This document shows positions 9,970-48,089 of a stretch of DNA of 64,000 bases, one piece after another; the stretch's first letter is position 1, and every line of letters begins with the position of its first letter. The stretch comes from an uncultured virus (IMG/VR IMGVR_UViG_3300028048_000070) (taxonomy: Duplodnaviria > Heunggongvirae > Uroviricota > Caudoviricetes). Location of the stretch: positions 62,001-126,000 of IMG/VR virus record IMGVR_UViG_3300028048_000070, one strand, 5' to 3'. The notes beneath the pieces are model-generated. The model was given only the letters and a program-made list of their open reading frames with translations. It was not told the DNA's origin and did not search any database. The translations under genes and the position numbers were made by a program.

Positions 9970-10719
9970 ATGGCTATATATTCATATGATAATACTATTA
10001 ATGCTATATTAATAAATGAAAATTGTTATAATGGAGAAGAGATAGATTCTTATCTTACAGAAGCTGGTACAGGTATTGAACATATTTCTGGATTTTATCA
10101 GCTTGCTACAAGTTTAATTGCACTTGCTAAAAAAATTGGTGGTAAACTTATTGGAAAGAAAAATTATACATCAAAAAGTATAGAATATCAGATTGATAGA
10201 TGTGAAAAATTACGAGATCGAATTGATGAAGAGCTTAAAGATCTTAAAAATAATAATTATAAAATTAAACCTAGTTATGTAGCTAAAAATTTCTTTGGAA
10301 GTTTTATTGCATTAATTACAACAACTTCTATTGAAGGGTGGCTTCTTCTTAAAATTGATAAAGTAAGTACGGTTTCTTTATTTAAACAAAATATGAATGT
10401 TAAATATAAATATGGAAAAAATTTTGTTGATTCTCTTTCAGATAGATATAAAGCTACAGCAAAACGAAGTTTAGATAATAGTTTTATCGATGCCTATGAT
10501 GTTGGCATGAATAGAATAGATACTGATTATAAAAAACTAGGAATTACTGCTCAAAAAATAACATTAATTATATCTGCTATTCTTGCTGCTGGAACAACAG
10601 TAGCTATTCTTAGTGATTATAAAAAATCCTTAATTGAATGGAAAGAAGCATTAAATAAATCGATTGAAACTCTTAAAAAAGCACATAAAAAAGCTCTTGA
10701 GAAAGAAAAGAATAAATAA
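9970..10719 (+). CDS. Putative virion-internal or membrane-associated protein
   Basis: N-terminal INEN/LTEA motifs, a hydrophobic segment and a coiled-coil C-terminus. Confidence 0.55.
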   Translation: MAIYSYDNTINAILINENCYNGEEIDSYLTEAGTGIEHISGFYQLATSLIALAKKIGGKLIGKKNYTSKSIEYQIDRCEKLRDRIDEELKDLKNNNYKIKPSYVAKNFFGSFIALITTTSIEGWLLLKIDKVSTVSLFKQNMNVKYKYGKNFVDSLSDRYKATAKRSLDNSFIDAYDVGMNRIDTDYKKLGITAQKITLIISAILAAGTTVAILSDYKKSLIEWKEALNKSIETLKKAHKKALEKEKNK

Positions 10720-26107: not shown

Positions 26108-26798
26108 TATAATCTCCCCAAGATCTAATAGTATTTGAAAGTTGGTAATATGGTAATTCTGTAAGTTCATTATTTTTTTGGCATTTTTCTATATATCTTA
26201 CTACTTTATATGCTATATCCATTGTAATACCATAACTATATTTCTTTAATAATAAAACCCAATTTCCAAAGCACATATTAATTGGTATATACATATCTGG
26301 ATTAGCATGATATAACTGATGTGCTGTTTCAGATAGCATAACTATGGGTATATTATTTTCTCTATGTTCTTGAATTAATAAATTTATAATATCAAAGGTA
26401 GTACATCTTCCCACTGTATTTAATATATGCTGAGAAATTAATATAGTAATATCATATATTGTTAAGAAGTTATGATGCATTTCTATATCAGCCATACCAT
26501 CTTGTATATTTCCATTTATTTGGCATCTATCTAAACCCATACTCATCAGATATGCTTTATATCCTTTATATGCTCTAGACTTTCTAAATCTATGAATACA
26601 ATTATCTATAAATCTTTTATATGTATCTACATCAGCTAATGTTTCTCTAGTTTGATAAAACTGTAATGGATATGGAGCTATTGAAAAATATAATGTAGCT
26701 ATAGGTGTATTAGGATTTATAAATTCTCTTGCCATATATACATCTATATCTTTTTTATCTGCTATTTTGGTAGATTCATTTAATGTTAAATCATTCAT
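25920..26798 (-). CDS. Conserved phage protein with HNH-like His motifs; paralog of 6598-7431
   Basis: DRCQI...IEMHH...AHQLYH; AGGAG RBS. Confidence 0.7.
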   Translation of the reverse strand: MNDLTLNESTKIADKKDIDVYMAREFINPNTPIATLYFSIAPYPLQFYQTRETLADVDTYKRFIDNCIHRFRKSRAYKGYKAYLMSMGLDRCQINGNIQDGMADIEMHHNFLTIYDITILISQHILNTVGRCTTFDIINLLIQEHRENNIPIVMLSETAHQLYHANPDMYIPINMCFGNWVLLLKKYSYGITMDIAYKVVRYIEKCQKNNELTELPYYQLSNTIRSWGDYNEYNLYNSNYTNFSNFNNTSNGYINGNFYEVNQLSKNDNKHLRNSQGTGQIYTEEQLFGSGL

Positions 26799-32072: not shown

Positions 32073-33302
32073 ATGGCTAAGAGGATATCAAAGAAAATTA
32101 CAGATGGTGAATTAAAGAATACTTTAATCAACCTTAAAGAAGAAGATATAAAATCCTCTTTTATATATGATCTTTTTGGAGAATATGATGGGGTTGCTAA
32201 ATGCAACCCCTATGATATTATAGATATACCACCTGGATTTTATGGCCCCGAAAAGCACAAAAATAAAAATGCTTTTACTACTACAGTAGGAATATGGATT
32301 TTTAATAAATGGATGATAGAACCTGATTTATTTGATTTATTTGGGTATATTAATAAAACTATTAATGGTAAGCAATTAGATGAAATAAATCAGCAATTAT
32401 CATATGCTTTAATGGAAGATAGAATAGATGTAGAAGCTCTTAAGAAATTTCTAATGAAAACTCAGCTTGCCATGCAATTTGTTACAGTATTATCCCCTAA
32501 TTATAATGAAGCTATCTTAACTATAACTAAAGTTGTAGATAAAAAGAAAGATGAATTAATTAAAAAATATAAAAAAGAATTAGATGAAGGTGATACTGTT
32601 ATTGCTAAGCAAATAGAGGATGAATTATTAAATTATGCATTAGAGACTCTTAAAGATGATCCTTCATTAGATTCTTTCTTATCAGGTGCAAGATCAAATA
32701 TTGATAACCATTTTAAGAATCTCTTTGTTTGGAAAGGTGCTACTAGAGATCCTAACCCAGAATCTAAACAGGAATTTAGAATTGCTACTTCTAATTATGC
32801 AGATGGTGTTAGGAGAGAAGAATATGGATTATATTCTAATTCTGGAATAGAAGGAGCATATTCTAGAGGTAAGAAAACAGAGCATGGTGGCTATCTAGAG
32901 AATCTTACTACATCTGCTTATCAAGATTTAATTCTTGATGAGCCTGGTACTGATTGTGGTACTACTAGATGTATTGAAGATGTAATAACTAAAAAGAATC
33001 TTAATAGATATATCTATAATAATATTATTGGTCCTAATGGTAAATTAATAGAACTTAATTCTCAGAATGCTGAAAAGTATATTGGTAAAAAAGTAAAAAT
33101 GAGAATGGCATTTCTTTGCCCTCATGAAAAGCCATGTAATGCTTGTGCTGGTAATTTCTATTATAAATTAGGTATCAAGAATGTAGGACTTACTCTGATG
33201 CAAGTATTCTCAATTTACAAAAATAGAACAATGAAAGCTTTCCATGATAGTACAGTTCAGTTAACTGAAATAGATACTATGAAAGCTTTTGGATTAAAAT
33301 AA
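32073..33302 (+). CDS. Phage RNA polymerase beta'-like subunit fragment (bridge helix to trigger loop)
   Basis: SNYADG...KTEHGGYL...DCGT (bridge helix), C...PCNACAG (zinc site) and TMKAFH (RpoC TMRTFH). Confidence 0.9.
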   Translation: MAKRISKKITDGELKNTLINLKEEDIKSSFIYDLFGEYDGVAKCNPYDIIDIPPGFYGPEKHKNKNAFTTTVGIWIFNKWMIEPDLFDLFGYINKTINGKQLDEINQQLSYALMEDRIDVEALKKFLMKTQLAMQFVTVLSPNYNEAILTITKVVDKKKDELIKKYKKELDEGDTVIAKQIEDELLNYALETLKDDPSLDSFLSGARSNIDNHFKNLFVWKGATRDPNPESKQEFRIATSNYADGVRREEYGLYSNSGIEGAYSRGKKTEHGGYLENLTTSAYQDLILDEPGTDCGTTRCIEDVITKKNLNRYIYNNIIGPNGKLIELNSQNAEKYIGKKVKMRMAFLCPHEKPCNACAGNFYYKLGIKNVGLTLMQVFSIYKNRTMKAFHDSTVQLTEIDTMKAFGLK

Positions 33303-40532: not shown

Positions 40533-41741
40533 TTATTCCTGGTATAATCTGTTGCACCATTCCCCATAGTATTTCCATACTTTATGGGAATTTTTATTGG
40601 TACCTTTCTTTTTATGCTTACCAGTATTATATGACCAGTAAGCATTTTCAGAGATACCATGGTTATTAACACAAATATTTATTTCATCCATTGCAGCACG
40701 AATGTTTATATAATCATTATACTGCAATTCATCACAAGTTAAGGTTGACATATCATAAGAGCTTATTAATCCTTTCTTTTTAAGCTCTTTCCAATTGCAA
40801 CTATTAACTTGTAAGATTCCTAAATCCCTACTACCATTTTTGTTGTAGTTGGATCTTTCTCTCCCAAAGTCACTCTCTTGTTGCATCATTCCCAATAAGA
40901 GAGCATAATAATGTTCTGGATCAGCAGGATAGAATTCTCTACAGAGATCATATGTATATTTCTGTAAATCCTTACTGAATTTATATTTCTCAACCAAATA
41001 GTTACTATAAGGAGTTTTATCAAGATTAGCTTGATACTCCTTATAATCATCTTCATCTCCTATATAATCAGACTTAATATAATATGTCTGGTCATTATAA
41101 AGAATTTCAGACCATCCATTTTCCTCTTTTATAAAATCTACATCTGTTCCAGCATCTAATACAAATGCAGATTCAGAATCTTCAGATGGTCCAGTTCTAA
41201 CATTTACATTAGTAAATGTCTTTTTATCAATGGAATTAAATTTTTTATATTCCATAATAGTTCCCACATAATCTGACTTTACATATGCAGGAGAACCATC
41301 ATGTAATATTTTAATCCAATCCCCCTTATCCTCCAATACATCTACAAATGTATTTTGAGGAATTTCAGATACAATGTCTGAATTGACATCTGGACTCTTT
41401 CTAGCATTAATATTTCTAAATGTTAAACTCTGATACTGCACCCTTTTAGAATAATCTATTCCTAAAGTTTTAGTAGGAATAGATTCATTGACATATTTAC
41501 TATTGTTGACCATCACAATTTTAATTGGTTCTTTTTTTATAGTGGTACCATTGACAGCTGTTTTTGGATTTGCTTTAAATCCAAATCCAATAACTATCAG
41601 CAATGCTATTATGGAACTTGCTGTCAAAGAGATCAAAATAAAGTTATCTTTTAATCTCTTTAGCATTTCTTTTCTTTTTTCTCTTTTTATATTTTTATCT
41701 CTTATTCTCCAAAAATTTTTTGATCGTTCTTCTCCAATCAT
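40533..41741 (-). CDS. Membrane-anchored cell-wall enzyme: two SH3b domains plus a lytic-transglycosylase (SLT-like) domain
   Basis: TM helix; INARKSP...W.KI...AYVKSDY and VNVRTGP...WSEI...YIKSDY (SH3b); MMQQESDFG, DLGILQVN, YNTG (SLT motifs). Confidence 0.85.
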   Translation of the reverse strand: MIGEERSKNFWRIRDKNIKREKRKEMLKRLKDNFILISLTASSIIALLIVIGFGFKANPKTAVNGTTIKKEPIKIVMVNNSKYVNESIPTKTLGIDYSKRVQYQSLTFRNINARKSPDVNSDIVSEIPQNTFVDVLEDKGDWIKILHDGSPAYVKSDYVGTIMEYKKFNSIDKKTFTNVNVRTGPSEDSESAFVLDAGTDVDFIKEENGWSEILYNDQTYYIKSDYIGDEDDYKEYQANLDKTPYSNYLVEKYKFSKDLQKYTYDLCREFYPADPEHYYALLLGMMQQESDFGRERSNYNKNGSRDLGILQVNSCNWKELKKKGLISSYDMSTLTCDELQYNDYINIRAAMDEINICVNNHGISENAYWSYNTGKHKKKGTNKNSHKVWKYYGEWCNRLYQE

Positions 41742-41788
41742 AAATTAAACCTCCTTTTATTACTCTTATTGAATTTTTTCATGGTCAC
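41738..41788 (-). CDS. Putative 16-aa leader peptide coupled to the lytic enzyme gene
   Basis: AGGAGG RBS, then GTG start MTMKKFNKSNKRRFNL; its TGA overlaps the ATG of 40533-41741. Confidence 0.45.
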   Translation of the reverse strand: MTMKKFNKSNKRRFNL

Positions 41789-41821
41789 TATTCCTCCTAA
41801 ATAGTAATATTACCCACAGTT

Positions 41822-41836
41822 TCATTATTATAATAT
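41822..41836 (-). promoter_or_regulatory. Putative early promoter motif ATATTATAATAATGA
   Basis: Identical to 6500-6514(-). Confidence 0.55.
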
Positions 41837-41936
41837 CTATCTAAAAATATTTATAAATAGATATATTTATATTTTTAATTATTACATTTTATTGTACTTT
41901 TTTATAAAAATTAATTTGTAATAAGGAGAATTAATT

Positions 41937-42725
41937 ATGACAGAATTTAATGGGGTTCCATTCCAATATAATCCTGCTATAACTAATGTAAATATAGATA
42001 ATCAACTTGCTGGGATTCTATCTCGGTTTAGTGATGACTATATTTTAGATATAGTTAAGGATTCCATTAATAACAGATTTAGGTTATATGATCTTCCTAG
42101 ACCTAATATAGTTAATGCTTTTGAAATTACTTTTAAAGAATTAACCGATGGATTTACATCTAATACAGATGAAATTCTATCTACAAGAACTAGAGTTTAT
42201 AATAACATTATAAATATTATTTGTAATTATTATGATTTTGCATTTATTCAAAATGATGATACAGATATATTCTCTGCTGCATATTGGTTATATGATACAT
42301 TTGTATCTAATTTTACATCTTCATTAATTAATTTTTATACTTTATATTTAATTAGAGAAAGAAAATCTATTGATTTGGCATTAAATTTATCAGAAATGGA
42401 TAAAATTAATGAAACTACTTATATTTATTCTAAAAAATTATTTAAAGATCCTAGCTTAGCTGGTATTCATTGTAATCTTGAATATGTAATTGATCAAATT
42501 AGTAATTTTGATATTAATCTATATACTATTTTAAGCACTGTCTATTCTGGATCTAATATAGATATTGGCAATTATATTGCTAGTATTATTACTGATACAA
42601 CTGGAATGTTTTTTAGAAAGTATTATGAATCATTTATATTTGGTAAAGAAGCAGCAGACATTCTTACATTAATTAAATTAAATTTACAACAATTAGGAAG
42701 TGAAATTGAGGCTTTGGGAGATTAG
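41937..42725 (+). CDS. Conserved hypothetical (probably late) protein
   Basis: AAGGAG RBS; 262-aa ORF. Confidence 0.8.
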   Translation: MTEFNGVPFQYNPAITNVNIDNQLAGILSRFSDDYILDIVKDSINNRFRLYDLPRPNIVNAFEITFKELTDGFTSNTDEILSTRTRVYNNIINIICNYYDFAFIQNDDTDIFSAAYWLYDTFVSNFTSSLINFYTLYLIRERKSIDLALNLSEMDKINETTYIYSKKLFKDPSLAGIHCNLEYVIDQISNFDINLYTILSTVYSGSNIDIGNYIASIITDTTGMFFRKYYESFIFGKEAADILTLIKLNLQQLGSEIEALGD

Positions 42726-42736
42726 AGTAAAAGAAA

Positions 42737-42952
42737 ATGACTGAAGATAGGCTTAAACAACATGATATAGAAGAAAGATTTGTTTGCTTATCATGTGCTA
42801 TGATTTATAGAACAAATATTTATTCGGATAGAGAACCATTTAGAAAATATTATGATAAAATTTGGGCAAAATGCCCTAGATGTAATTGTATATCGTATAA
42901 GCCTATTGCTAAACCTGAAAATGAAGTAATTAATAGTGGAGAAGATATTTAA
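42737..42952 (+). CDS. Small zinc-ribbon protein
   Basis: CLSC...CPRC. Confidence 0.6.
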   Translation: MTEDRLKQHDIEERFVCLSCAMIYRTNIYSDREPFRKYYDKIWAKCPRCNCISYKPIAKPENEVINSGEDI

Positions 42953-42953
42953 A

Positions 42954-44126
42954 ATGAATAATATAGACAATAATAAAGTAGATGAGCTTTACAATAATCT
43001 TTTAGAATCTGCTAAAGGTATAGTAGAAAATGAAGATGGAAGTACAAGTTATGCAGACTTAAAAGAGTTAGATATTAATACTACTGAATCTCCTATATCT
43101 ACTACCGGTATATATAATCCTATTACTGGAGATATAACAGCAGATACTGCTAGTACAAATACTAAAGTATTATCAGATTTACATTTTAATAGATTCACTG
43201 GTGGAGAAGAAGTTTCTCTTACTTTTGATGAAATTAAGAATATTCTTCCTAGAACTGTAGAATCTGAACTTACTGATTTAGAAGAGATAAATATTTTAAA
43301 TAATATCATTAAGAAAAAATTTAATGGTGAAAAAATTAGTTATGATGAACTTCCTAGTTTTCTAAAAGAATCAGCACTTGATATTGTTAGAAAATCTTCT
43401 GATGATGGACCAGCATTAGCATTTCTTGGAAATAAAACCAGACTTAATTATGCTGCTAATTTACTTATTGGAGAATTAGCAAAAGAATGGGAAAAGAAAA
43501 ATGCTTATATAGACTTAGATACTATGCTTGCTGGATTTGATCAAGATTTTCAGAAACTTCAGAATGAAACATCAAAAGAATTTGGTAATATTTTAATGTC
43601 TTTTGATGAAGAAAGAAAAAAGGAAATTGATGCTGCTATTGCTAGATGTAAAGCAGAAGGTAAAGAAGAAGCTGTTGAGAAATTAGAGAAAATTAAAAGT
43701 GTTATTGATGAGGCTTATAATTTAACTAATTTTTCTGAGTATTGTAAGCATGTAAAAATTAAGAAGTTTGATTTAGAAAAACCTAAAAAAGTATTTCTTT
43801 CTTTTAATGCTAAATATTTAAAGCATAATAATAATATTAATGATATTCAATATTGTCCTGTAGTATTAGATAGACATATTATTGGAGATAGTAAATCTAA
43901 TATGAAATTATGTTTAGCATTTTGTAAATATTGTATGAACTATTCTCCAGATAATATAGAAGAACATAGTTTTATGTATTATTTTATTAAGAACATCATT
44001 CTTCTTGATAGAATAAATCCTAAAGGATTGATGTATGATTCTTTAGATGAGAAATCTAAGAAATTCTATGATGGATTTTTAAATAATCTTAAAAAATGCA
44101 TTTTAAATCTTAATAATCGACAGTAA
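42954..44126 (+). CDS. Hypothetical protein
   Basis: Long ORF; ATG 42954 follows the upstream stop (alternative GTG at 42936). Confidence 0.8.
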   Translation: MNNIDNNKVDELYNNLLESAKGIVENEDGSTSYADLKELDINTTESPISTTGIYNPITGDITADTASTNTKVLSDLHFNRFTGGEEVSLTFDEIKNILPRTVESELTDLEEINILNNIIKKKFNGEKISYDELPSFLKESALDIVRKSSDDGPALAFLGNKTRLNYAANLLIGELAKEWEKKNAYIDLDTMLAGFDQDFQKLQNETSKEFGNILMSFDEERKKEIDAAIARCKAEGKEEAVEKLEKIKSVIDEAYNLTNFSEYCKHVKIKKFDLEKPKKVFLSFNAKYLKHNNNINDIQYCPVVLDRHIIGDSKSNMKLCLAFCKYCMNYSPDNIEEHSFMYYFIKNIILLDRINPKGLMYDSLDEKSKKFYDGFLNNLKKCILNLNNRQ

Positions 44127-44127
44127 T

Positions 44128-44139
44128 AACATATAAATA
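44128..44139 (+). promoter_or_regulatory. Putative late promoter AACA-N6-TA with no downstream CDS
   Basis: AACA tataaa TA immediately after the stop at 44126. Confidence 0.5.
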
Positions 44140-44398
44140 AATGAGAATGTGTAATTACTGCCCATTTCCTTTAATTATGCATTTTTCAATAATGTGATTT
44201 CCACAATCATATATACCTCCTTTTTGTTATTTTGCGTGTGTTGGGTTTCATGCTTTTCTCCTGTGTTTCATAACTTGTCGTTATCCTTTCTGATTTATTG
44301 TATGCTTGTTATTTGTTGTTCATGACTAAACCTCCTTTCGTTATTTTTTGACAGAAGACCCAGTAGGAGCCTTCCCTACTGGGTTTCTTCTGTATTTT
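44139..44398 (+). ncRNA. Candidate small RNA made of tandem anti-Shine-Dalgarno/anti-AUG modules
   Basis: U-rich and A-poor with no long ORF. CAT-spacer-CCTCC/TCCT units at 44163, 44208, 44249, 44269 and 44321. Bounded by a promoter-like motif and a strong + strand terminator. Confidence 0.6.
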
Positions 44399-44400
44399 TT
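44351..44400 (+). terminator. Strong intrinsic terminator
   Basis: acagaagacccagtagg...cctactgggtttcttctgt followed by atttttt; a U-tract follows only on the + strand. Confidence 0.85.
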
Positions 44401-44450
44401 ATTGAAACTTAATAGTAATCAAACTAAGTGAAAGGTATGGTGTATATAAA

Positions 44451-47330
44451 ATGCTTTTAGATAGTTCATATACAATCATCCCACAGATCAGATTTACACT
44501 CTCTTTTGATAATGATATAATTAAAACTGTAACTGTTAAACATGAAGATACTGTCTCTTGCACTTATAAGAAGAACGGAGAAAGATTTTCAATTATTGGT
44601 ATTGTAACTAAAATTGGATGCAATTTCAATTCTTCTCTTGGAGCAGTTGGCACCACTGCTTACATTCAAATCGATGGTTCTTCTGAATATTCTGGAGAAG
44701 TTATTTATGTTCAGCCAAGTCAAATTCTTGATATTAATGTGATATCTTCTACTAGTGTTGTAGAAAATATTGTTTGCTCTGTATCCAATGAAGATCAAAG
44801 AATTACATTAGTTAGAGAAAATGAAGTTGGTGTATTCCAATATAGCTTAGATGGCATAACTTGGAATGCTGCAGTTGGATCTCAAGGTATGTCGGCATAT
44901 GAATGTGCTGTAGCTCTTGGATTCAATGGTACTGAAGAAGAATGGCTTACTAGTCTTATTGGACCTAAAGGAGATACTGGAGAAGCTGGAGCTTTAGAAA
45001 TCTATAAAGTATTTCATTCTATTATAGAAGCAGAAACTGATAGATGTGAAGTTCCTATTGGAAAACTTGTCGCTATTGTGCTTGATGATACATATCTTTT
45101 TGTTAGAAAAGAGGATGGTAATTCTAATTGCAATTGTGGCTGTGGTTGTTTTATTGATGACTCTGGCAATACCGATCCTATACAAGTTAAAGGATATGAT
45201 TACCTTGGATCTCTTACTGTGGGTCCTGAAGGAAAACAGGGTGAGCCTGGTAAGTCTGCATATGAATATGCAGTTGAAGGAGGATATCCTGGAACTGAAG
45301 AAGAGTTTACCCAGACATTGGGTAAATCTGCTGTAGCAGTAACTAGTTTCTTTATGGGTAAAGATCCTACATTGAAGGAAACTGTAATTGGTCCTATTGA
45401 TATGAAGATCTTTGGATATACTGATAAAGAAACATTTAAAAGTGTTGAACTCTCTAGAATTGATGTTTATTCTTCTATAAGAGATATCAATCAGACTTTG
45501 ATTCTTCCAGAGACAATTACTCTTAGAGCAGTTCCTACTAAAAATACTGCAGCTAAGCCTAATCTCTTCATTGAAGATGAAATGTATGTGGCTGATCATA
45601 TTACCAGCTATAATGGAAAGATTGGTGTTCTTAGAAGAATAAAGTATATTGAATCTTATAGTGGTGAAACTATTATATCTGACTGGATTTCTTCTACTGG
45701 TGAACTTGATTATGGTGCTGCAATTCAGTATGTAATAGATGGAGAATTCTTTGAATTTGCTCCTGAAGTTCAAACTCAGTATAGAAAACTTCATACATAT
45801 GATAATGAAACTACTATTGAGACAACCGAATCTACTTATATTTCTATTGTATATCCGATCGATATCACTAAGTTTGTAAATACTTATGTAGAAACCTATA
45901 TTGAAGAACATAAAACTGAAATTGTTGCTCCTGTTGTAAGAGAACTTATTGGTCTTCCAGATGGAGAAACTGTTGCATCTTATGTAGACAAGAAAATTGA
46001 AGAATCTGTTGGAGATCTTCCAGATGGGTATGATTCTGTAGCAGATTATATTGATGATAAAATTGGTGAACTTCCTGATGGGGTAAATTCTATTACCGAT
46101 CTTATTGGAGAATTACCTGATGGAGTTAGTTCTGTAACTGATCTTATTGATAATAAAGTTGGAGAATTGCCAGATGGAAAATCTGTAACGGATCTTATTG
46201 GTAATTTACCTGATGGGGTAAATTCTATTACCGATCTTATTGGAGATCTTCCAGATGGTATAAATTCTGTTACTGAACTTATTGGTGAAGTTCCAGATGG
46301 AAAATCTGTAACAGATCTTATCGGTAATCTTCCAGATGGTATAAATTCTGTTACTGAACTTATTGGTGAAGTTCCAGATGGAAAATCTGTAACCGATTAT
46401 GTTAATGATAAGATTGGTGATCTTCCTGATGGAGTTAGTTCTGTAACTGATCTTATTGGAGAATTACCTGATGGTACAACTTCAGTAGTTGACCTTATTA
46501 ATAATACTATTGGTAATCTTCCTGATGAATATAACTCTGTATCTGAATATGTAGATGCTATTAGCAATAAAATTGGAGAATTACCTGATGGTACTGACTC
46601 TGTAGTTGATTTTATCAAAGATACGATTGGTGAAGTTCCTAGCAAGTATAATTCTGTAATTGATTATCTTGATGACATTAAAAATTCTGTAGGTGAAGTA
46701 CCCGAGGAATATAATTCATTAGCAGAGTATGTAACTGCTATTGTTGGTGAATTACCTGATGAGTATGAAAATATTGCAGATTATATTAAAGATGTCAAAG
46801 ATGAAATTGGAGAATTACCTGATGGAAAAACTGTAACTGATCTTATTGGTGAAGTACCTGAGGAGTATGATTCTCTTGCTGATTTTATTAATAAAAAGAC
46901 ATCTTATGAAACAGGATTTACAACAACTGTAGATGTTGGTGGAGTTCCTGCTGGTACTGTTATTAATTCTAATGCTCAACTTCTTGATCTTATGAGACAG
47001 ATTTTAGCTCCTGAAGGAAGTAATGAAACTATTACACTTTATTTTGGTGTAACTCATGATATTCCTACAGATCTAACTGGATTAATTGCTCAAGAAAAGA
47101 ATAAAGCTACGGTATTAAATCAAAGTACAAATTATTATTATACTGCAAATGATGAACATTTTGTTTTTGCTACTCCTAAATCTATTGAACCTTTAATTTC
47201 TATTAAAGACTTTTCTGGTTTGGAACAGTTTAGTGGATGGGCATCTATAGAGTATAATGATTATACAATTTATTACACTAAAGAACCTCTTACCATTGAT
47301 AATTTCAGAATTATATTTTACTACAGATAA
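44451..47330 (+). CDS. Virion fibre or decoration-type protein with collagen-like segments and ~14-18 aa repeats
   Basis: SAYECAVALGFNGTEEEWL, GPKGDTGEAG, GPEGKQGEPGKSAYE; many (I/V)G(E/D/N)(L/V)PDG repeats; AACT-N6-TA at 44406. Confidence 0.7.
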   Translation: MLLDSSYTIIPQIRFTLSFDNDIIKTVTVKHEDTVSCTYKKNGERFSIIGIVTKIGCNFNSSLGAVGTTAYIQIDGSSEYSGEVIYVQPSQILDINVISSTSVVENIVCSVSNEDQRITLVRENEVGVFQYSLDGITWNAAVGSQGMSAYECAVALGFNGTEEEWLTSLIGPKGDTGEAGALEIYKVFHSIIEAETDRCEVPIGKLVAIVLDDTYLFVRKEDGNSNCNCGCGCFIDDSGNTDPIQVKGYDYLGSLTVGPEGKQGEPGKSAYEYAVEGGYPGTEEEFTQTLGKSAVAVTSFFMGKDPTLKETVIGPIDMKIFGYTDKETFKSVELSRIDVYSSIRDINQTLILPETITLRAVPTKNTAAKPNLFIEDEMYVADHITSYNGKIGVLRRIKYIESYSGETIISDWISSTGELDYGAAIQYVIDGEFFEFAPEVQTQYRKLHTYDNETTIETTESTYISIVYPIDITKFVNTYVETYIEEHKTEIVAPVVRELIGLPDGETVASYVDKKIEESVGDLPDGYDSVADYIDDKIGELPDGVNSITDLIGELPDGVSSVTDLIDNKVGELPDGKSVTDLIGNLPDGVNSITDLIGDLPDGINSVTELIGEVPDGKSVTDLIGNLPDGINSVTELIGEVPDGKSVTDYVNDKIGDLPDGVSSVTDLIGELPDGTTSVVDLINNTIGNLPDEYNSVSEYVDAISNKIGELPDGTDSVVDFIKDTIGEVPSKYNSVIDYLDDIKNSVGEVPEEYNSLAEYVTAIVGELPDEYENIADYIKDVKDEIGELPDGKTVTDLIGEVPEEYDSLADFINKKTSYETGFTTTVDVGGVPAGTVINSNAQLLDLMRQILAPEGSNETITLYFGVTHDIPTDLTGLIAQEKNKATVLNQSTNYYYTANDEHFVFATPKSIEPLISIKDFSGLEQFSGWASIEYNDYTIYYTKEPLTIDNFRIIFYYR
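45947..46890 (+). repeat. Coding tandem repeats IGELPDG.NS.TDL
   Basis: About 20 imperfect copies, some identical at DNA level. Confidence 0.85.
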
Positions 47331-47348
47331 TATGGAAGGGGTGTAAAT

Positions 47349-48089
47349 ATGATACAAATTGTTCAGGGTTTTGAAGTTAAAACAAGAGAGGCTATTGATA
47401 ATCGTTTAGTATTATCAAAGCAAGAAATGTTTAATATAAATGATAACCATATGCCTGTCAAATATTTTGCTGTTTGCTCAGATGATGGTTATCTTTATAT
47501 ATACAATAAAGATTCTGCAATAATTTCTTCTGAAACTGGTAAATTTAAAAAATATTCTTATTGTAAAATTGAATCTATTTCTATTAATGGAGTAGAACTT
47601 CCTATTAATGACATGGCAGTAGATATTCCTCTTTCCACTCATGAAGCTTTTGGCGTATCAATGGCTGGAAAAGGTATTAGCTCTGTTAATGGTGTCTATA
47701 ATATTGATTTTACTACACTTGATGATGCTGAAATTCCAATTGAGAAAGTTCAATGGGAAAATGCTATCATAGTACGTGGATATTTATTTGAAGGACAATT
47801 TTACCAAGATGAAGAGCATAGAATTAAATATGTTCCATATGAATACAAAATTTATGTTGATATAACTTCCTCCACTATTTTTATTTACAATGGAGAAAAT
47901 TATATATCTGCCATTGCTAATGTACCATTTGCAGATCAGAATCTTGCTGGTATTGCTAAATTGTATCAAAGTACTGGCACAAATACAGATGGTTCCATCT
48001 CTCAAAAAATAGTAACTGAAGAACTTAATCAGCGATTTAAAATTACTACAAATGCAGCAGAAGAAACCATCTTATTTTTAAACAATTAA
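47349..48089 (+). CDS. Tail-fibre-associated protein
   Basis: IESISINGVEL and AGIAKLYQSTGTNTDGSISQK segments typical of fibre proteins; context. Confidence 0.55.
   Translation: MIQIVQGFEVKTREAIDNRLVLSKQEMFNINDNHMPVKYFAVCSDDGYLYIYNKDSAIISSETGKFKKYSYCKIESISINGVELPINDMAVDIPLSTHEAFGVSMAGKGISSVNGVYNIDFTTLDDAEIPIEKVQWENAIIVRGYLFEGQFYQDEEHRIKYVPYEYKIYVDITSSTIFIYNGENYISAIANVPFADQNLAGIAKLYQSTGTNTDGSISQKIVTEELNQRFKITTNAAEETILFLNN

Follow-up and report, generated by a model that had tools for sequence, protein, structure and literature searches.

A stand-alone gene for an abundant, conserved non-coding RNA with mirrored translation start regions in a rumen phage related to Bacillus phage AR9

In a giant phage of the cattle rumen, a relative of Bacillus phage AR9, the gap at 44128–44404 between two + strand genes constitutes a gene in its own right for an abundant non-coding RNA, which is real and conserved. 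The RNA is very probably transcribed from the + strand and, judged from its sequence, probably acts on ribosome-binding sites. The reading we prefer, to which we give about an even chance of being right, is that this abundant + strand RNA pairs with start regions as a broad, multivalent competitor rather than as a set of specific guides. Coordinates refer to the window, the 64,000-nucleotide stretch of DNA that was analysed, unless another sequence is named.

Results

The phage and the composition of the gap

The window is contained in a 135,785-bp virus record of 28.7% GC, and a complete 287,868-bp contig (G001) carries sequence identical to it. Sequencing runs containing DNA of the phage are labelled bovine or sheep gut. 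The gene at 32073–33302 encodes an RNA polymerase beta fragment of a split enzyme that matches phrog_2962 ‘RNA polymerase beta subunit’ (6e-60), with Bacillus phages AR9 and PBS1 as its best tblastn matches (33% identity, E 2e-52), and tail sheath, terminase and RtcB are also encoded. On these grounds the phage is assigned to the AR9-like jumbo phages, and AR9-type transcription is plausible because the split polymerase fragment is closest to those of AR9 and PBS1. When 50,697 phage records, near and distant, were searched at the DNA level, matches of 60–84 nt were obtained within the fibre gene only.

The preliminary description of the gap had listed a promoter word, five CAT sites, a recurring GTTAT and a terminator, and all of these were confirmed at its coordinates (Table 1). 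GTTAT occurs four times (44226, 44280, 44308 and 44340) and the + strand of the gap is composed of 46% T, 22% A, 18% C and 15% G. The terminator consists of a GC-rich stem-loop followed by a U-tract, the T-run being present on the + strand only, and two terminator-like sites were found compared with 0.3 in shuffled sequences. No tRNA, tmRNA or tandem repeat was detected in the gap, the anti-start units not constituting a tandem DNA repeat, and no + strand ORF preceded by an SD sequence was present in any of six variants of the unit. Rfam searches of both strands gave no family in the gap (region searched 43000–45500, E<=10) and nothing within the unit in five relatives (E<=1); a sub-threshold match to ncr1175 over the terminator and promoter of one relative (L012), on the minus strand, reached 30 bits where the gathering score is 60.

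Table 1. Features of the RNA gene and its surroundings (window coordinates; P(unpaired), predicted probability of being unpaired)
Feature	Position	Strand	Remarks
Upstream gene	42936..44126	+	396 aa, no family; syntenic anchor
Promoter motif AACA-N6-TAA	44128..44140	+	AACA 44128–44131, N6, TA 44138–44139, then A
Small RNA, ~260 nt	44139..44404	+	Predicted start A 44139; no SD-led + strand frame
5' hairpin, 15 bp including 4 G.U	44143..44186	+	Apical loop is the conserved UGCCCAUUUCCUU, unit 1 of the preliminary description (CAT 44163, then TTCCTTT); loop P(unpaired) 0.76–0.87
Mini-ORFs	44175..44323	-	MNNK (44323), MKHRRKA (44271), MKPNTRKITKRRYI (44251), MIVEITLLKNA (44210)
Module 2, CAU-AUAU-ACCUCCUUUU	44208..44224	+	Mirror of SD plus AUG; CAT 44208, anti-SD ACCTCCTTTT 44215–44224; P(unpaired) 0.74–0.83
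UUUUGCGUGUG motif	44230..44240	+	Found by eye; recurs in variants, position differs
Module 3, CAU-GCUUU-UCUCCU	44249..44262	+	TCTCCT 44257–44262; P(unpaired) 0.89–0.91; not conserved in relatives
Module 4, CAU-N11-AUCCUUUC	44269..44290	+	Weak SD mirror, long 14-nt spacer; CAT 44269, then ATCCTTTC 44283–44290; not conserved in relatives
Module 5, UCAUG-ACUAA-ACCUCCUUUC	44320..44339	+	Directly 5' of terminator; CAT 44321, then ACCTCCTTTC 44330–44339; P(unpaired) 0.80–0.85
Intrinsic terminator	44351..44403	+	17-bp stem with 2-nt bulge (44351–44393), 7-nt loop, U-tract
Promoter motif AACT-N6-TAA of fibre-like gene	44406..44418	+	45 nt before ATG 44451; conserved in relatives
Downstream gene	44451..47330	+	959 aa, tail-fibre-like, tandem repeats; syntenic anchor

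The gap as a transcription unit of its own

For AR9 the reported late promoter consensus is AACA-N6-TA/G, and transcription starts at its last base (PMC5312081). The AACA-N6-TA at 44128–44139 had been proposed to be a late promoter word of this type, and the motif was validated by its positions within the genome. AAC[AT]-N6-TAA is present in 49 copies on the two strands of G000, 21 of them intergenic, with non-coding DNA making up only 9.8% of the sequence. Nineteen of the 21 lie 27–61 nt upstream of an ATG on the same strand; of the remaining two, one is situated 149 nt ahead of a gene and the other is the copy at 44128. Copies in antisense orientation show no such positional peak, which is confined to the sense orientation. 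Genome-wide, therefore, AAC[AT]-N6-TAA behaves as a promoter of this phage, and since a second copy at 44406 stands 45 nt before the fibre-like gene, the gap forms a transcription unit of its own.

This second promoter also bears on a cis-acting interpretation, according to which the RNA would be a prematurely terminated 5' leader and read-through would control the fibre-like gene. The RNA does immediately precede a tail gene that is read in the same direction, and terminated leaders are typically far commoner than their mRNAs; small RNAs derived from 5'UTRs upstream of a tail gene are described for phiKZ and 201phi2-1 (PMC11512511), and an ORF-less late unit at 26232 of G001 runs into the SD of its gene without a second promoter. 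At the gap, however, a canonical AACT-N6-TAA promoter occurs between terminator and gene, is conserved in relatives and keeps the usual distance of 45 nt to the ATG; distant relatives have the gene, the promoter and the terminator yet are without such a unit, and no conserved antiterminator pairing was noticed in an unsystematic look. We consider a leader function very unlikely.

Abundant RNA from the gap in rumen metatranscriptomes

Four rumen metatranscriptome runs (X15–X18), representing two samples of two studies, were inspected as contigs over the region 41500–47500. Contigs from the gap were 15- to 200-fold deeper than those of the flanking genes in three of the four runs. In X17 a contig spanning 44161–44355 and identical to the window had a depth of 1745, the other contigs on the stretch having depths of 2–34, and in X18 a contig at 44149–44305 had a depth of 86 compared with 2–5 elsewhere on the stretch. 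The bin 44113–44313 had a depth of 155 in X16 (other bins 0–31) and of 0 in X15, where a 231-deep contig of a variant strain departs from the window sequence at 44026. Contaminating DNA cannot explain such depth ratios. The check on metatranscriptomes called for in the preliminary description thus revealed an abundant RNA from exactly this gap.

RNA contig cover is absent at 44356–44427 and, for the window's own sequence, at 43801–44148, and RNA contigs of the fibre gene start at 44428–44451; RNA contigs show neither strand nor ends, and gaps in their cover prove nothing. The exact ends of the RNA and its late timing are inferred. Overall, the data support the proposed discrete RNA of about 44139–44400, bounded by a late-type promoter of the phage and an intrinsic terminator, its assignment to the + strand being deduced as follows.

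Strand of the RNA

Folded alone, the 5' hairpin has a predicted stability of -10.6 kcal/mol on the + strand versus -4.4 on the minus strand, and it is more stable on the + strand in all five variants that were compared (-7.8 to -11.5 versus -4.4 to -7.2). Its four G.U pairs would be mismatches on the opposite strand, which favours the + strand. RNAalifold returned a consensus hairpin with five compensatory pairs for the + strand, while for the minus strand no structure at all was returned. The basal pairs of the terminator in six variants comprise eight G.U cells versus two A.C, and the U-rich tail is on the + strand in all six. No promoter motif was found on the minus strand of the gap. An adapter tail, which we take to be Illumina, adjoins the left end of the gap contig at 44161 in X17 and at 44220 in X16; in a stranded library an adapter in this orientation would be expected where an RNA fragment read from the + strand has its 5' end.

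If the minus strand were the functional one, the gap would supply four or five strong ribosome-binding sites with coupled mini-ORFs, serving as a sponge for ribosomes or for a GGA-binding protein, or as ribosome-stalling minigenes. On that strand the mirrors read as perfect start regions, the second codons are rich in A, the last three mini-ORFs (MKHRRKA, MKPNTRKITKRRYI and MIVEITLLKNA) overlap by ATGA, and five GGA words are present; a real coupled upstream ORF of 14 codons occurs elsewhere in the phage, at 41782 on the minus strand. These features are outweighed, in our judgement, by the hairpin and terminator, which favour the + strand, by the lack of a promoter motif and a U-tract on the minus strand, by adapter junctions at the left end only, and by the poor conservation of the mini-ORFs, and the alternative is regarded as most improbable. 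Across variants there are 1–5 mini-ORFs of 4–17 aa each, with no conserved peptide, and L016 has none beside the terminator; no Rfam family was matched on either strand. ATGA opens 53 of 115 phage genes and is mirrored by the UCAU of the modules, and in our view the mini-ORFs arise incidentally from the mirror design and are not genes.

Some further candidates were rejected. The mini-ORFs still do not merge into one gene if TGA is read as a residue (by eye). A type I toxin-antitoxin pair does not fit antisense ORFs of 4–17 aa that are mostly hydrophilic and unconserved. A GGA sponge of CsrB/RsmZ type on the minus strand is disfavoured by the structure and the U-tract, both of which favour the + strand, and there was no Rfam match on either strand.

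Enrichment of mirrored start regions

Strict units, defined as an SD core followed after 4–14 nt by ATG on the minus strand, number four in 220 nt of the gap; 5000 shuffles that preserve dinucleotides contained 0.55 on average, and nine of them reached at least four. CCTCC/CTCCT is present in five copies versus 0.33 expected, a count reached in none of the 5000 shuffles. Among 35 gaps of at least 120 nt in the 135.8-kb record, this gap alone contains several units antisense to both of its neighbours, the others holding ordinary small genes or gene starts; raw clusters of SD plus ATG that are equally dense or denser do occur within coding sequence, for example eight in 220 nt at 10052 of G000 on the minus strand. 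In fold predictions anti-SD motifs have P(unpaired) mostly of 0.6–0.99 versus a mean of 0.41–0.51 over all windows.

It had been claimed that five units each pair an anti-SD with an anti-AUG. Four strict units bear this out, whereas unit 1 lacks a usable SD-to-ATG spacing, forms the apical loop of a hairpin and has CAA in place of CAT in one relative, and unit 4 is weak. Over the six variants CAT lies within 17 nt 5' of 10 of the 13 anti-SD cores, compared with a background of 19–57% of all positions, and the link to an anti-AUG exceeds that background only moderately.

Conservation in relatives

Searches of viral and metagenomic contigs that were anchored on proteins yielded the unit in six distinct versions, each flanked by the same pair of genes: that of the window (identical in L002, L011 and L021), L012, L013 (= L017), L014 (= L003, L004, L015 and L018), L019 and L016 (= L020). 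Only one new variant, L019, was contributed by the metagenome scan. The promoter word is kept in all six (as AACT in L016), and so are the U-rich tail and CCTCCTTTC, which is invariant and stands a few bases before the terminator. CCUCCUUUC likewise precedes the terminator in all six syntenic variants, with CATG 6–9 nt 5' of it in five. Five variants have the 5' hairpin with the UGCCCAUUUCCUU loop, UGC(C/U)CA(U/A)UUCCUU, and compensatory substitutions in its stem, the 5' hairpin of L016 being without the conserved loop, and a ACCUCCUU-type motif follows the hairpin in five of the six. Between these conserved parts the modules differ from variant to variant in both count and sequence: there are four complete mirrors in the window and zero to three in the other variants, and some variants carry extra hairpins in the middle of the unit. 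Distant relatives (L005–L007, about 30% identity in a flanking protein) are without the unit and have instead small + strand genes and a plain terminator-promoter junction. Of the expectation that syntenic arrays would be found in relatives, the unit itself held in six variants and the conservation of its middle modules did not.

UCCUU is the sole word common to the three conserved motifs, that is, the loop and both conserved modules, and occurs 2–4 times per variant versus 0.45–0.72 expected from shuffles. A UCCUU-specific MazF exists. The RNA might be a decoy of the 3' tail of 16S rRNA that soaks up a protein, such as an abortive-infection ribonuclease of MazF type from the host, by which this tail is bound or cut. 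The recurrent UCCUU and the repeated, unpaired (A/G)CCUCCUUUC are words of the ribosomal anti-SD tail, and the invariance of CCTCCTTTC in six of six variants and the high copy number fit a sponge; toxins that remove the anti-SD are described (PMC12274833) and also count for a decoy. Yet pairing with SD sequences explains the same words equally well, and a decoy gives no role to the CAU found at start-codon distance in five of the six terminator-proximal modules. We regard the decoy as quite unlikely.

Search for targets

The mirrors of the modules were compared with 115 phage start regions and the longest shared words were 9–13 nt. Real start regions share 7–32 nt among themselves (mode 10), and the module mirrors fall inside that distribution. 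No complementarity to any start region extending beyond the generic SD was found in the 288-kb genome or in a 274-kb relative. BLAST of the RNA and of its L014 homologue against G001 and G002 gave chance-level matches only, of 14–25 nt; the best match to a gene start (16 nt, at 139755 of G001) was not matched by the RNA of the relative. The best single candidate was the start region of the neighbouring lysin-like gene at 40533–41741, with 12 bp plus the AUG, which was rejected as a target because it shows no co-variation with the RNA in the relative.

Predicted duplex energies with the RNA body were lower for start regions than for internal gene segments (-15.3 versus -11.8 kcal/mol, p 1e-12), a difference that is partly trivial because the RNA holds the SD complement. 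Genes with a late promoter and other genes pair equally well (-15.4 versus -15.2, p 0.57). The late genes of the phage have equally strong SD sites, and a generic inhibitor would therefore hit the phage itself.

The preliminary description had likened the modules to an array of guides for particular start regions. Comparison of the modules with phage start regions gave no match beyond the generic SD core, the middle modules are not conserved, and late and other genes pair equally, so that the notion of an array of guides with particular targets finds no support.

The complements of the conserved loop and of CACACGCAAAA had no partner in G001 or G002, and the complement of UUUUGCGUGUG had no other copy in either, with up to one mismatch allowed. 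With no partner for the loop or UUUUGCGUGUG in the phage genomes, the host is left as a source of targets, and the RNA might be a specific regulator of one host RNA, with UGCCCAUUUCCUU or UUUUGCGUGUG as its actual seed and the variable anti-SD modules in an accessory role. Such a role would suit the loop, the best-conserved unpaired stretch in five of six variants. It fits less well with L016, whose 5' hairpin is without the loop, and with the invariant element being an SD mirror and not the loop. A dedicated regulator of this kind appears unlikely.

Discussion

Proposed mode of action

From the arrangement of these elements we infer the mechanism as a whole as follows. The AR9-type RNA polymerase of the phage would start the RNA at about 44139 from AACA-N6-TAA and the intrinsic terminator would end it near 44400. 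The 5' hairpin and the terminator hairpin would bracket a U-rich and largely unstructured body, in which three to five unpaired copies of the SD complement (UCCUU/CCUCC) are predicted to be displayed, several with CAU at start-codon distance. By base-pairing with the SD, with or without the AUG, the RNA would most likely keep 30S subunits off start regions. The modules mirror a consensus start region and not particular genes, so a broad competitor is likelier than specific guides. The conserved hairpin loop and UUUUGCGUGUG may add specificity or bind a protein.

Broad blocking of ribosome-binding sites, if true, would be a new, protein-free route by which a phage steers translation and would offer a natural template for multivalent translation silencers, while a 16S-tail decoy, if true, would be a new kind of counter-defence. 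To our knowledge very little work has been done on regulatory RNAs in virulent jumbo phages. The small RNA of this uncultivated phage is, on direct evidence, very highly expressed; its promoter and terminator are defined, it exists in six natural variants and it follows a clear sequence logic that lends itself to testing.

Relation to known RNAs

By analogy, the best reading is a generic anti-start-site RNA like the csRNAs (cia-dependent small RNAs) of Streptococcus. As reported for these, an anti-SD and an anti-AUG lie unpaired between two stem-loops, with CAU in 53 of 61, and their presumed effect is a block of translation initiation (PMC3091779). The two kinds of RNA share a mostly unpaired complement of SD and start codon between two stem-loops, in the order CAUG-CCUCCUUUC in five of six variants of the phage unit. 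They differ in that the present RNA is encoded by a phage, is about 260 nt long versus about 100, has two to five mirrors versus one, and is preceded by an AR9-type AAC[AT]-N6-TAA promoter and not by one of CiaR. No relation to csRNAs in sequence or structure was returned by Rfam (E<=10 for the gap, E<=1 for relatives), which may not include a csRNA model.

C-rich-seed RNAs of Firmicutes, such as RsaE/RoxS and the loops of S. aureus RNAIII, pair with the SDs of several mRNAs through unpaired pyrimidine-rich motifs. They are host-encoded, however, and have C-runs instead of a full SD complement and no anti-AUG, and the RsaE/RoxS covariance model (Rfam RF01820) had no match in the gap or in the units of relatives.

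Among phage RNAs, the c4 antisense RNA of P1 and P7 is described as blocking translation through loop-exposed sequences that pair around a ribosome-binding site (PMC12197685). Its single specific target, ant, belongs to the same operon as c4 itself, whereas the rumen-phage RNA has generic mirrors and no target was found for it in the phage genomes. The small RNAs of phiKZ (gp182) and 201phi2-1 are, like that of the rumen phage, conserved jumbo-phage RNAs located just upstream of a tail gene (PMC11512511). As described there, they are produced when the leader of the tail gene itself terminates early, unlike the arrangement in the rumen phage, where a separate promoter follows the terminator, and the portion of that account available to us reports no anti-SD content for them (PMC11512511). 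A limited literature search found no description of a phage RNA with tandem start-site mirrors.

In AR9, the closest cultured relative, a late start site at 75478 on the minus strand has been mapped experimentally, the transcript being classed by the authors (Table S3) as antisense to g090. In the AR9 record this site lies behind AACA-N6-TA in an intergenic spacer, and the RNA opens with UCCUCCU followed by a hairpin. Both transcripts thus have a late start behind AACA-N6-TA and an anti-SD stretch, but that of AR9 is much shorter, has one anti-SD word and shows no sequence similarity to the rumen-phage RNA. It is possible, though doubtful, that jumbo phages of the AR9 type produce, late and in great excess, free RNA carrying the ribosomal anti-SD tail in multivalent form, as a generic device that either rivals 30S subunits at every strong SD site and so reprogrammes translation globally or is a decoy absorbing host factors or toxins directed at the 16S tail. 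Either way, a mapped but ignored transcript of AR9 is tied to a possibly general feature of this group of phages.

As a separate observation, three more ORF-less units with anti-SD words behind the promoter word were noted in G001, at 26232, 77579 and 87656, and are listed as candidates; the phage may possess several units of this kind.

Promoter-like word and ORF-less units

In a scan of the whole 135.8-kb virus record, 19 of the 21 intergenic copies of AAC[AT]-N6-TAA were found 27–61 nt 5' of a same-strand ATG, indicating that this is a promoter-like word of strongly constrained position. The AACT form outnumbers AACA, the form of the Bacillus jumbo phage AR9. Three further units without an ORF and carrying anti-SD words were observed in the complete 288-kb contig (G001), each downstream of this word, and terminators are present in two of the three. 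The unit at 26232 is leader-like, since it continues directly into the SD of a gene. The unit at 77579 carries CAU-N8-UCUCC immediately 5' of its terminator, the same design (CAU, anti-SD, terminator) as module 5 (44320–44339) of the window small RNA. In AR9, the minus strand of the g090–g091 spacer (KU878088.1 75401–75538) contains AACA-N6-TA followed by an RNA starting UCCUCCU and a long hairpin; a published Table S3 entry places a start site at 75478 (class 'Antisense', step height 3757).

Leaders and upstream ORFs

The conserved 5' leader of the fibre-like gene 44451–47330 (window 44422–44450) contains GAAAGG, one base and an AUG, which starts an out-of-frame 7-codon ORF (MVYIKCF) overlapping the true start of the gene; the real ATG is without the usual SD spacing. 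Within this gene, a rumen metatranscriptome contig of depth 34 omits 309 nt (window 46115–46425) falling in the tandem GELPDG…TDLI repeats of the protein, a strain-to-strain difference in repeat number.

The 14-codon ORF upstream of the SH3+SLT lysin-like gene has a strong SD of its own, contains the SD of that gene and terminates on its start codon as ATGA, a textbook translational coupling arrangement. At this position the 274-kb relative has a 68-aa ORF instead. All six tandem paralogues outside the window carry a near-identical SD-less word (…AGTATTATGCTATAT…) immediately 5' of ATG, possibly an early promoter whose mRNAs would be leaderless or short-leader. The G+C-rich gap may represent a structured RNA.

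Coordinates of the features (window, positions in the window; G000, virus record; G001, 288-kb contig)
Feature	Location	Strand	Remark
14-codon ORF MKKFNKSNKRRFNL	window 41738–41782	-	upstream of gene 40533–41741 (-)
AAC[AT]-N6-TAA examples	window 13074, 31182, 38849, 44406, 58096, 58683		promoter-like word
ORF-less units with anti-SD words	G001:C1:26232–26450, 77579–77720, 87656–87880	+	outside window
Six tandem paralogous genes	G000:C1:146–4367	-	~175–220 aa each; outside window
ORF-poor 280-nt gap	G000:C1:15500–15800	-	unusually G+C-rich (genome 29% GC); outside window
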